Source: Dictyostelium discoideum (Eukaryota). From it: a stretch of 64,000 nt of DNA. The position numbers and the translations under genes are program-made. Under the pieces are notes generated by a model that ran no database searches, was not told where the DNA came from, and worked only from the letters and a program-made list of their open reading frames with translations. Positions within the stretch are counted from its first letter, which is position 1. Every line of letters starts with the position of its first letter. Below are positions 52,660-57,217 of the stretch, in pieces. The stretch is taken from the NCBI GenBank assembly GCA_000004695.1, contig CM000151.3, positions 5,888,001 to 5,952,000 of the forward strand. The letters run 5' to 3'.

Positions 52660-55600
52660 TTATAAACTAAATAATTTCATTAATAAATGAATTGTTAAAG
52701 TTACATCTAAAGTTATACCTTCTAATGGGAATTCATCAATATGATTTTTTGATTTTTCCAAGAGATCATCTAATTCTAATTGTAGGGATTTTGTGATTGG
52801 ACCAAATTTAGCTTCAATTTCAAATAAACCAGGACCTAAAGATTTGATATAAATTTTTGTTTTACTAAAACTTGATTCTGGTAATTCACAACGAAGTATC
52901 ATACCTTTCTTTACAAGATCCAATAGAATGAATTTATGAGGTTTAATTGTTGATTTATCTTTTGGTAATGGAGTTAATTGAGTTGTTTTTAATTGTTTCT
53001 TTACGATTGCTTTTTCAAGTTGTTCATTTTGGAATTTAGTTAAATGTTCAAGAGGGGCGGCATCAATTCTAATCGATTTCAAAAGACTATGAAGACGAGT
53101 TAACTCTGATCTCATAACTTTATTCTTTCTTAGAATTGTAGCCAACTCTTTTTCAACATCCAATAGGAAGAGATTGAAATTATCAGGACCACCACCATCC
53201 AAACCATCGGTACATTGATCACGATCAAATGTTCTTAAACGTGAGATTAATTCATTGGATTTATTGATTATTGATAGATTCTCTGAAGAGTTACTACCAG
53301 TTTTAAAGTAATCGATAGCTTCACGAATGATCTCAATGGTATTGGCATTCTTTTTTGGTGGTTGACTCTTTGAAAGGATATCGATCATCCAAAGTTTACA
53401 TTCTTTCCAAAGATCAATGGATTGTTCATTCAATTGATCTAAACGATTGATAAAAGAGAGTTGAATTGAACGATCACCTTGTTCAGGTAATTGAATTGGG
53501 AAATCGATTTCATCTAAATACTTTTTCAATGGCCAATTTTGTGATTTTTGACTAGTCATGATGGCTGGAGTCGATTGTCTTGCGGCTGTAACATATTTAC
53601 CTTTATCCAATTTTGAGTTTATAGCTCTTTCTGCTAAATTTTGAATTGATTTCTCAGAGACCTCTTTCAATGTACCAATATCTTCAAGATCATAAAAGTT
53701 TGAAAGAATAGTTTCATGTAACCAAATGATCTCAGAGATATTAATTACTGAACAAAATTTAATATTATTTTCCAACATGATTTCATTATATTCGCTATAG
53801 TGAATTAATTCATCTAAATCTGGTACTTGTGCCACTTGACAAAGGAATTTATCAGCGGATGATGAATTTTGAATGATCCATTTATTGAGATAAACAGTTG
53901 GGAAATAATTCATCCAAGGTTTTTCAGAGAAAACCGATTGAATTAAACGTGATAATTGTGATAGATTGAAACGACTTTGTTTTGTAATGTATGGATGTTG
54001 AAGTAATACTAATTCATTTAAAAGATCTGGTGATGAAATAATTGGAATAATGAAACGATAAATAATTAAAAAGTAAGAAATATACTTTTCACGATTCTCT
54101 GGTAATTGTTTTGAACGATTATTATTTAAAGTTATATTAGCTGTGGTACTACCACTTTCATCACTTGAAATACCACCGCCATTGTGGTGATTGTTGGTAT
54201 TATTGGTTGGAAAAGCATATTTTGATTTCTCTGCAATTATTCTACAAAGATAACGTAATTGAACTGGTAGTTGTTCAATTGATTTTGTTATACGTTCTAA
54301 GAATGCATTACCAAGCTCAACCAATTGAAGACATCTTGAATTGAAAATAGATACTACATCATTATTTGCCATCAATTGTTCAAATGTTTGATCTAGTGTT
54401 TTCTTTTCACTCTTTTTACCATCTTTTAATTCTTTAGCTATTTGAATCTCTTTTTGAATCCAATAAGGATCAAAATTTAAATTTAAATCAGTTTGATCTA
54501 AAACTTTTAAAATCAATGGAGTTATAATCTCTTTTAAATATTTGAACCCTTTTTTCTTAAAATATTGGTAAAGTAATTTCATTGGCACCGATTCTGATTG
54601 AAGGAAATCTTGTAGGGTTTCAGAGTACTTAATTTGATATTCAATACCAACGGTTAAGGCTTTTAGGAATAAATCCTCTTCACGTGGTGAAATTTCATAT
54701 GGAAACATTGAAAGGAGGAGATTATCAAAAGTTTTACCCATTTGATTTCTATCTAAAAGGAATAACAGCTTACCCATTACCTCTGGTCTGGTTTGAAGAT
54801 AATAAAATAGTGATTGATAGTTTTTCATTTTATTTGGATCCAAACCATTTGGTACACCTTTAACTGGTTTAATGATTACTTTCTTTTGTTTCTTTAGTTT
54901 TTTACCTTCATTTTTATTCTCCAATACACGATCGATTGATTTAGTAAGTTTTTTCAATTCTGCTTGATGATGAGTTGTATTTCTAAGTTCACCAATGATA
55001 TTTCTTTTCAATTCTGTTATATCACCAATTAACTTTGTCATATTATCAGTGAGTGAGGTATCATCGATCATTCTCTTTTGAATTCTAATACAAATTTTAT
55101 ATTCTTTATTGTATTCTATACGTTCTAATTCACTTTGTCTAGTTATACGTTCACGTTCACGTAATTCCCTTTCGAGTCTTTCTGCTTCTAGACGTAAGGC
55201 TTCTTCACGCTCACGTTCAATACGTTCTTCTTCGAGACGTTCAAATTCTTCACGTTCAATACGTTCACGTTCGATACGCTCCATTTCTTCACGTTCAATA
55301 CGTTCTTGTTCGAGACGCTCATACTCTAGACGTTCTTGCTCTTCAAGTTCTTCACGTTCACGCTCTATACGTTCACGTTCAATACGTTCACGTTCTTCAT
55401 ATTCTAAACGCTCACGTTCAATACGTTCCAATTCCTCTAGTTCAATACGCTCACGTTCTAAACGTTCTTGCTCGAGACGCTCTTGCTCTAAACGTTCACG
55501 TTCTAAACGTTCACATTCTAAACGCTCCTGTTCGAGACGTTCACGTTCAAGACGCTCTTGTTCTAATCTTTCTTGTTCTAAACGTTCACGCTCTAAACGT

Positions 55601-56833
55601 TCACGTTCAATACGCTCCTGTTCAAGACGCTCCTGTTCTAAACGTTCACGCTCTAAACGTTCAAGTTCAATACGTTCTTGTTCAATACGTTCCATTTCTT
55701 GTCGTTGTTTCTCTAAACGTTCTCTCTCTAAACGTTCACGCTCTAAACGTTCTTGTTCCAAACGCTCCCTTTCTAAACGCTCCCTTTCTATACGTTCACG
55801 TTCTAAACGTTCACGTTCTAAACGCTCTTGATCAGTTCTATGCTTTTCTTCCCTCTCTTTACGTAAATTTGCAATTGCAGCCTCTGAATTGAATAATGAG
55901 GCAACCAATGCTAAATTTAATTTTGGATGACCTAATGCAATATCAGATGGTGTAAGGAAACATTTTACACCAATCTTTTCACATGCCTTTGTAATTAACT
56001 CAGCTCTTGAGAATAGATTTGATTCTGAATGAATTGTTGAAACTAAATTCTCAAATTCAATTGGTACTAATTGATGAAATAAATGTGAATAAACTACACT
56101 ATCTTGAATATCCTCACTGAAATTACTAATTCTTCTTTCACAACCTTCTTTCTCTAAATGATAATTTACCCATCTTAATAAAATTTCCTCTGCTGAATGT
56201 TCATCTGATTGATTTTGTGTATTATCAACTTCTTTAACTGAATCTTCTTCAAATAATATTTCTAAAATTTCATTTGCATTTTGATTAACTTTTGATAATA
56301 AACCTTGCTAATTAATTAATTTATAAAAAAAAAATAATAATAATTAGATTAATAATTAAATATAATATATTATATAATAATAATAATAATAATAATTACT
56401 TTAATAATTTGCCAAATTACACCTAATACTAAATAGGGTGTTGCATTCATTAAATCTTGTGCACCAATATTTACAATAATACAACCAACTTCAATTGCAT
56501 TTTTAATTACTATATTTTGATTTTGAATCATTTCAAATGGATTCATTTTATTTTTTATACATAGTCCTTTTAAATTAACTTGTGTTAAAAATAATGATTC
56601 CATTAATTTACTAAAAAAAAAAAAAAGAAAAAAATAGATTAATTATTATTATAAATATAAAAATATGAAAGAAAAATAAGTATATAATTTTATATTACTT
56701 TAGTAAAACACCATCTGTACAATTTACAAATAATTGATCAGTTGATGGGTCAATTGGAACATAATTTGATAAAACATCCTCTTGATCTATCAATCTTTCT
56801 GTTATAAATTTTGAATAAGCAACTATTGTTTAG

Positions 56834-56872
<39 letters not shown>

Positions 56873-57217
56873 ATACATATATTGTATAATTATTAAAGTA
56901 AATTTCATTAATTTTAAATGTTTTATATTGTATTATTATTTTTAAAAAAAAAAAATATATTGTTAATATTAATATATATAAGAATAATTTTAAATGTTTT
57001 TTTTTTTATTTTTATTATTTTTATTTTTATTTTTATTTTTACCTTTTTCTTCTTCAGAGAATGTATGAACACTACCATCCTCAGCATTTGCATTGATTAA
57101 TATATTATCTTTTTTAGATATTTTTGCACTTGCTAATACTTCTTGAGTAATGAATGGAGGGTCCATTTTCTTGCTACCTCTATTTAAAGTATTATATCGA
57201 CTATCAGTATATGTCAT
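52660..57217 (-). CDS. IQGAP-family (RasGAP-related domain + RasGAP_C) protein with an N-terminal fimbrin-type tandem-CH actin-binding domain and an (RLERE)n coiled coil. Exons 57043..57217, 56699..56822, 56400..56610 and 52660..56307.
   Basis: Exons 1-3 and the start of exon 4 give ..[57 protein letters not shown]...[38 protein letters not shown]...[43 protein letters not shown]...[15 protein letters not shown]. This aligns closely to fimbrin/plastin CH1-CH2. After the coiled coil the sequence reads [20 protein letters not shown] ... [21 protein letters not shown] ... [20 protein letters not shown], matching the IQGAP GAP-related domain. All three introns are phase-consistent (phases 1, 2 and 0). 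Confidence 0.7.
55130..55850. repeat. 15-bp tandem repeat (about 45 copies, degenerate) encoding the ([10 protein letters not shown])n coiled coil inside the IQGAP-like gene.
   Basis: The plus strand shows repeating cgttcacgttcaata / cgttctaaacgctct units. The minus-strand protein reads [24 protein letters not shown]... The antisense SR-rich ORF 55109-55831 is an artefact. Confidence 0.85.

Follow-up and report, generated by a model that had tools for sequence, protein, structure and literature searches.

iqgD of Dictyostelium discoideum: a fimbrin-type actin-binding domain joined to an IQGAP-type C-terminus by a pentad-periodic spacer that may form a single alpha-helix

In mammals, IQGAP1, IQGAP2 and IQGAP3 combine a single type-3 (calponin-type) CH domain, which constitutes their N-terminal actin-binding module, with IQGAP coiled-coil repeats, a WW domain, IQ motifs and a region ordered GRD-RGCT-CT, whose GAP-related domain (GRD) has lost the arginine finger. 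Fimbrins and plastins carry an EF-hand headpiece and two actin-binding domains (ABDs), ABD1 (CH1-CH2) and ABD2 (CH3-CH4). The gene considered here, iqgD (DDB_G0275731, DdIQGAP4) of Dictyostelium discoideum AX4, lies in a stretch of 64,000 nucleotides (contig CM000151.3, positions 5,888,001 to 5,952,000 of the forward strand; hereafter the window, to which all coordinates refer). Its product draws on both systems, joining a fimbrin-type CH duplex to the GRD-RGCT-CT order of the IQGAPs through a 252-residue repeat rich in glutamate and arginine (the E/R repeat or spacer), which stands in the place of the IQ motifs, the WW domain and the IQGAP coiled-coil repeats, all of them missing from IqgD.

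This fusion is already known, from literature since 2005-2010 and from a functional characterisation in 2026. It is in print as a "fimbrin-related RasGAP" in Pikzack (2005) and in the CH-domain inventory of Friedberg & Rivero (2010), and IqgD was treated in 2026 in both a functional paper (PMC13628810) and a review (PMC13299636). The original prediction, made from the letters of the DNA, had set the architecture apart from that of the only Dictyostelium IQGAP-related proteins which it named, DGAP1 and GAPA; the architecture is real, but it had already been described as iqgD.

According to the functional paper, the CH duplex of IqgD makes direct, low-affinity contact with F-actin and is needed for cortical and cup localisation, and the GRD and CT bind Rac1A/B/C and, mutually exclusively, cortexillins I and II (PMC13628810). 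The protein has no GAP activity and slows the intrinsic GTP hydrolysis of Rac1, so that Rac1 binding and inhibition of its GTPase are common to IqgD and the mammalian IQGAPs, just as the cortexillin and Rac1 partners are common to IqgD and DGAP1/GAPA (PMC13628810). Knockouts of iqgD grow poorly on bacterial lawns and do not take up surface-attached beads and yeast, and IqgD decorates the F-actin ring around surface-attached particles (PMC13628810).

Gene model and identity of iqgD

Four minus-strand exons sum to 4158 nt in frame and code for 1385 aa (Table 1). All their borders are canonical GT..AG, and every intron contains in-frame stops within 1-17 codons. The GC content is 22-32% in the exons and 3-8% in the introns, the flanks and introns together spanning 3-15%; extreme AT-richness is typical of Dictyostelium. 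The exon coordinates originally proposed proved exact to the base: in an exact-sequence look-up, the spliced product is the same, from the first to the last residue, as XP_643564.1 (EAL69616.1, UniRef100_Q552W4), the DDB_G0275731 protein of strain AX4. This also answers the comparison with annotated iqg genes that had been proposed as a check, the product being IqgD itself. The published gene (iqgD or DdIQGAP4, chromosome 2, 1385 aa, three introns) agrees with this model in all points, none of our findings speaks against the identification, and we regard it as virtually certain that the locus is iqgD, a four-exon gene for a 1385-aa cortical scaffold, in its identity and architecture alike. Proteins of 1368-1384 aa from further D. 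discoideum isolates, from D. citrinum and from D. dimigraforme fall into the same 90% cluster as IqgD.

An annotation artefact, in which the CH exons constitute a separate upstream gene, has in its favour only that three splices are required to link exon 1 with exon 4. The frame of exon 4 is uninterrupted from 56307 to the stop, and because this one open exon encodes CH2 and the GRD as well as the E/R repeat, the fusion of CH and GRD needs no splice prediction. Furthermore, CH1 alone would be only half an ABD, the same architecture is found in orthologues of at least eight species, and a single transcript is supported by published antibodies against an N-terminal fragment, by knockout and Southern data and by an intron-less copy of the gene. 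The chance that the CH exons form a gene of their own is thus negligible, and this reading is effectively refuted already. The intron-less copy in question, iqgD-L2, is a published retrogene of strain AX2-214 whose sequence equals that of the spliced L1; no similar copy was found in the window with an exon 1/exon 2 junction query allowing up to 2 mismatches.

The mechanical open reading frame (ORF) list does split the gene, as had been pointed out, into a 77-aa ORF (56370-56603) and a TTG-started 1082-aa ORF (52660-55908), both of which are fragments of iqgD. A 1082-aa Logan protein in the IqgD 90% cluster (P0012) corresponds to the same TTG-started partial ORF and reflects prokaryote-style calling on eukaryotic contigs.

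Fimbrin-type and IQGAP-type modules

A Pfam search of the spliced product, also proposed at the outset, called CH twice (E=6.8e-29) and RasGAP once, and did not call RasGAP_C. Residues 45-316 aligned to ABD1 of human plastin-3 (7R94 residues 113-381) with E=7.7e-61 and without gaps at the exon junctions, keeping SEEEK, LVLG..WQIIK, LLRW.N.HLE and NPKLNLA. The resemblance to plastin/fimbrin ABD1 that had been claimed, quoted motifs included, is therefore real, and so is the substitution of a fimbrin-type pair for the lone calponin-type CH that canonical IQGAPs have, given that the two CH domains aligned as a unit to fimbrin ABD1. The ABD2 part of the same plastin chain scored just 17.8 bits against IqgD, while ABD1 of T-fimbrin was also matched and the fimbrin cores of Schizosaccharomyces pombe and Arabidopsis gave E=1e-53 to 1e-55. 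With fimbrins and plastins (7R94; S. pombe Fim1, 1RT8; Arabidopsis fimbrin, 1PXY) IqgD thus shares the whole of ABD1, at about 40% identity and with the diagnostic motifs kept.

The other fimbrin modules are missing. Pfam found no EF-hand family in the full protein, in which just 44 residues precede the ABD, and no CH3-CH4, only the two CH stretches being called and CH2 being followed by the E/R repeat; the C-terminus is an IQGAP module. Because the ABD1 module alone is present, IqgD is not a fimbrin, and without EF-hand headpiece and ABD2 it would therefore not bundle filaments as a monomer. An indexed homologue search with the ABD gave 22 plastin/fimbrin matches from assorted eukaryotes (31-42% identity), among which there was no dictyostelid fimbrin.

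The predicted IQGAP-type GRD was equally well supported. Pfam RasGAP was called with E=2.2e-42, and the domain aligned to the IQGAP1 GRD (3FAY), YQ.LFY.LQT included, with E=5e-31 as a single sequence and E=3e-41 with an orthologue profile, and to that of IQGAP2 (5CJP) with E=2e-37 using the profile. IQGAP1 and IQGAP2 were the only solved GRD relatives recovered by the single-sequence query; neurofibromin appeared weakly (E=2e-3) and with the profile only. By these comparisons the IqgD domain is homologous to IQGAP GRDs rather than to catalytic RasGAPs. Its arginine-finger position is occupied by Q740 (54598-54600, minus strand), aligned to T1046 of IQGAP1, and by Thr or Ser in the orthologues, so that the finger is lost in IqgD as in the mammalian proteins; the FLR/YYR motif takes the form IYR (residues 919-921). 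Because of the Gln at the arginine-finger position, the GRD should be non-catalytic. In contrast to the mammalian GRDs, that of IqgD has extra inserts, of which the low-complexity one at residues 870-912 differs by indels among D. discoideum isolates (e.g. P0001) and thereby accounts for their length differences of 1380-1385 aa. Upstream of the GRD, the HN helix has been predicted to pair with RGCt-HC as a coiled coil (PMC13299636).

Of the C-terminal part, the RasGAP_C call that had been expected was not obtained: PF03836 reached E=0.062 and 13.8 bits against a Pfam cut-off of 26 bits, and the full protein gave no report at E<=0.01. The homology itself stood, as RGCT-CT, in pairwise alignments to family members. 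Relatives were collected with an exhaustive phmmer search of residues 590-1385 against 1.84 billion representative proteins, which gave 451 hits, and the best 150 of these 451 were examined. Among these 150 closest relatives, 51 had C-termini to which residues 1096-1383 aligned colinearly and over the full length; in one of them (P0016), for instance, the aligned span 590-878 encloses a Pfam RasGAP_C at 686-805 with 85.9 bits. An orthologue-profile search of the PDB matched CH and GRD structures only, with no match to the IQGAP1 RGC/CT at E<=1. Residues 590-1385, modelled with AlphaFold2 (AF2) from six sequences, gave confidence values too low for a fold search (mean predicted local distance difference test, pLDDT, of 42; predicted template modelling score, pTM, of 0.30). 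InterPro also makes no RGCT call in IqgD, and AlphaFold 3 shows GRD-RGCT-CT (PMC13628810). On the strength of the colinear alignments, RGCT-CT is present in IqgD but diverged, and domain databases would miss it because of this divergence and not because of its absence. With a homologous GRD devoid of the arginine finger and a colinear RGCT-CT, IqgD belongs to the IQGAP-related family.

Between the E/R spacer and HN lies a short conserved motif, invariant in seven orthologues at nine positions (Y573, I575, R578, Q580, K581, R582, M583, D585 and D586). It occupies the place of the IQ motifs in IQGAP1 and contains the letters IQ. An IQ motif at this IRIQKRM site was considered and rejected, since it matches neither strict nor loose IQ consensus patterns and has no Pfam IQ hit; the same patterns and Pfam found no IQ motif anywhere in IqgD. 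DGAP1 and GAPA also lack IQ motifs (PMC13299636).

A pentad repeat between head and tail

Published domain schemes of IqgD leave residues ~316-567 unannotated, and neither IqgD paper discusses the segment (PMC13628810, PMC13299636); its analysis as a pentad repeat and single helix is an addition to the published description. The repeat is composed of 40% Glu, 28% Arg and 20% Leu/Ile/Val/Met, with neither Pro nor Gly, and 76% of its residues are charged or polar. Its hydrophobic power is 2.8 at periods 5.0 and 2.5 and only 0.04-0.08 at 3.5, 3.6 and 3.67 (0.08 at 3.5, 0.04 at 3.67). A five-residue spacing visits all seven heptad positions, in steps of 140 degrees around the helix, and because it cycles through them the a and d positions are mostly Glu or Arg, 2.8/8 of them being hydrophobic. 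Hydrophobic seam networks, counted following the Waggawagga definition (i,i+3/4,i+6/7/8; PMC5812594), number 0.4 per 100 aa in the repeat, compared with 8.5 in tropomyosin and 21 in the GCN4 zipper, and with 17.6 and 19.4 in the HN and HC helices of IqgD itself. Opposite-charge i/i+4 pairs, on the other hand, amount to 100 against 59.9 +/- 5.4 in shuffled sequences, which is 7 standard deviations (SD) above expectation. An AF2 model of residues 171-640 gave helix over 298-585 with pLDDT ~74-94, compatible with a single helix and a coiled coil alike.

The signature of the repeat is found in all 13 of 13 orthologues, with lengths of 131-252 aa and with i/i+4 pairing ~6-9 SD above shuffles. Within the D. 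discoideum species group the length is 245-252 aa, and among five D. discoideum or D. cf. discoideum isolates the spacer measures 252 aa in four and 247 aa in one. At the DNA level it consists of a 15-nt unit repeated 33 times in tandem, with a higher-order unit of 75 nt at 77% identity. CGT accounts for 60 of its 70 Arg codons, versus 16 of 37 elsewhere in iqgD, and its GC content is 0.43. The CGT skew, the raised GC and the 77% identity of the 75-nt units point to a fairly recent amplification of the corresponding 25-aa unit. A 240-aa Ser/Arg-rich ORF antisense to the repeat (55109-55831, plus strand) was rejected as a gene, since it mirrors the GAA/CGT/TTA repeat.

The original prediction had read the segment as an (RLERE)n coiled coil, which the weak power at period 3.5 and the dearth of seams do not support. 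Because there is no heptad periodicity, almost no hydrophobic seam and neither Pro nor Gly, and because i/i+4 pairs are enriched, the evidence tips slightly in favour of an ER/K-type single alpha-helix (SAH) spacer rather than a dimerising coiled coil. Criteria for SAHs have been described, as has their frequent misprediction as coiled coils (PMC5812594, PMC4571873). With the ER/K SAH domains of myosin-6, -7a and -10, MyoM, INCENP and drebrin, the repeat shares the richness in charged and polar residues, the i/i+4 Glu-Arg pairing, the lack of a seam and of Pro and Gly, and the interdomain position (criteria in PMC5812594 and PMC4183817). It differs from them in its strict five-residue period with Leu/Ile in each pentad, in its many like-charge i/i+3 pairs and in its unusual length of 252 aa. 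Several observations weigh against a single helix. The repeat is 21% hydrophobic, above idealised SAHs; it contains destabilising like-charge i/i+3 pairs at a frequency of 30.6 per 100 aa; and its density of charge networks, 50 per 100 aa, lies between that of tropomyosin (16) and those of designed SAHs (240-275). The AF2 helix breaks at residues 431-438 (LECERLER, ~55504-55527, minus strand) with pLDDT <50 and without Pro or Gly. This break in the model could come from a modelling fold-back or be a real hinge near the sole Cys of the repeat, and it could also mean that the segment folds back as a hairpin. Moreover, a strict alternation of [DE] and [KR] may be mistaken for an SAH (PMC5812594), and the review lists IqgD oligomerisation as an open question (PMC13299636).

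Two other readings of the segment have been weighed, and we consider both improbable. If (RLERE)n were a true coiled coil, it would dimerise IqgD into a bivalent F-actin cross-linker, as in IQGAP1, and dimerisation would take the place of fimbrin's second ABD. The segment is indeed long, uninterrupted, free of Pro and Gly and predicted to be helical, with Leu/Ile at every fifth residue; its position matches the coiled-coil (CC) region of IQGAP1, and the two long helices given by AF2 are compatible with helix-helix packing. Dimerisation would also make functional sense, because a single ABD1 binds actin weakly (PMC13628810). This scheme is at variance with hydrophobic power that peaks at period 5 and nearly vanishes at 3.5 and 3.67, with a and d positions taken mostly by Glu or Arg and with seam networks 20-50 times fewer than in real coiled-coil controls; Fig. 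1 of the primary paper likewise shows the CC region as absent from IqgD (PMC13628810).

The segment might instead be a disordered polyampholyte that arose as a by-product when replication slipped and whose only role, if any, would be that of a flexible tether. The 15-nt array with its 75-nt units and the range from 131 to 252 aa between genera are in line with such an origin, as is the CGT skew, which is expected for recent unit amplification. A mere by-product is hard to reconcile with the retention of composition, of i/i+4 pairing and of the lack of Pro and Gly in 13 of 13 orthologues, which extend to distant dictyostelid genera, despite differing sequences. The near-fixed length within the D. 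discoideum species group and an AF2 helix with pLDDT up to 94 also argue against disorder, and we give this reading no better chance than the coiled coil.

Under the favoured single-helix reading, the E/R spacer would be a semi-rigid, charged alpha-helix of up to ~38 nm when fully extended, which would set how far the actin-binding head stands from the tail that binds Rac1 and cortexillins, without dimerising IqgD. Its length would have been changed by expansion of the tandem 15-nt and 75-nt repeats, to give the 131-252 aa seen across dictyostelids. A more specific proposal, whose chances we see as evenly balanced, is that the 252-aa segment is an unusually long pentad-periodic ER/K helix that provides a fixed head-tail reach of ~20-38 nm, may work as a constant-force spring within the force-bearing actin ring that surrounds surface-attached particles and has a length tuned by lineage. 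If this is true, IqgD would be a monomeric molecular ruler and not a dimeric cross-linker like IQGAP1. The spacer hypothesis bears on the question, raised in the review, of IqgD oligomerisation and of force-bearing phagocytosis with one weak ABD1.

Relatives, feature coordinates and neighbouring gene

Among the best 150 of the 451 phmmer hits, orthologue-level scores were reached by the proteins of Synstelium polycarpum (858 bits, 3053 aa) and Cavenderia fasciculata (823 bits, 1582 aa), after which the next hit falls to 216 bits at ~31% identity. Of these 150 proteins, a local phmmer search found the fimbrin-type ABD in the two orthologues only. The hits that follow are DGAP1/GAPA-like proteins, which together with DGAP1 and GAPA are, after the IqgD orthologues, the closest to the GRD-RGCT-CT half (~870 aa and ~30% identity, e.g. 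in Acytostelium subglobosum). Unlike IqgD, this type has neither CH domains nor an E/R spacer, and its RasGAP_C scores 65-89 bits, compared with 13.8 in IqgD.

Orthologue models with both CH and RasGAP were found in D. firmibasis, D. citrinum, D. dimigraforme, P. violaceum, T. lacteum, C. fasciculata and S. polycarpum. Taking the best 150 relatives and the indexed search together, the fusion was seen in Dictyostelium, Polysphondylium, Tieghemostelium, Cavenderia and Synstelium, and was not found outside dictyostelids. The ABD starts at residue 1822 in the S. polycarpum protein (P0013) and at residue 388 in that of C. fasciculata (P0014), which has an N-terminal extension of ~390 aa. The 3053-aa model of S. 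polycarpum probably merges the orthologue with an upstream gene. Two other GRD-CT relatives carry further N-terminal combinations: a Logan protein of 1605 aa (P0017) has CH, five filamin repeats, RasGAP and RasGAP_C, and a 1665-aa protein (P0025) has CH, doublecortin-type domains, RasGAP and RasGAP_C. The IQGAP family seems to have repeatedly exchanged the N-terminal modules by which its members bind the cytoskeleton.

Table 1. Coordinates of iqgD exons, introns and protein features in the window
Feature	Position	Strand	Residues	Description
Exon 1	57043..57217	-	1-58 and first base of codon 59	ATG at 57217; N-terminal tail and start of CH1 (SEEEK); donor GTAAAAAT directly adjoining
Intron 1	56823..57042	-		220 nt, 5.9% GC, GT..AG; read-through stop after 17 codons
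Exon 2	56699..56822	-	59-100	124 nt; part of CH1; plastin-3 alignment contiguous across both junctions
Intron 2	56611..56698	-		88 nt, 8% GC; read-through stop after 1 codon
Exon 3	56400..56610	-	100-170	211 nt; remainder of CH1; contains the false 77-aa ORF
Intron 3	56308..56399	-		92 nt, 3.3% GC
Exon 4	52660..56307	-	171-1385	3648 nt including TAA stop at 52660-52662; CH2, E/R spacer, HN, GRD, RGCT, CT
CH2	55888..56196	-	208-310	Pfam CH; with CH1 makes up the fimbrin ABD1-type domain, residues 45-316
E/R pentad repeat	55117..55872	-	316-567	252 aa; consensus (E-R-[LI]-E-[RQ])n
Conserved motif	55060..55101	-	~568-586	EY.KEY.I..R.QKRM.DD, between E/R spacer and HN
HN helix	54898..55050	-	~590-640	Upstream of GRD; heptad-like; predicted helix
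GRD	53701..54834	-	~662-1039	Pfam RasGAP 725-964
Low-complexity insert in GRD	54082..54210	-	870-912	Asn/Gly/Ser; follows the helix that ends in ..KYAFP and precedes the IYR motif
RGCT and CT	52663..53532	-	1096-1385	

Convergent with the 3' end of iqgD, an ORF at 51682-52047 (plus strand) matches cytochrome c/c1 heme lyase (PF01265, E=1.4e-28) over profile positions 81-176 of 299, and it continues beyond a poly-Asn run at ~52050-52180. Since this ORF holds just part of the PF01265 domain, the heme lyase gene probably continues in a further exon.

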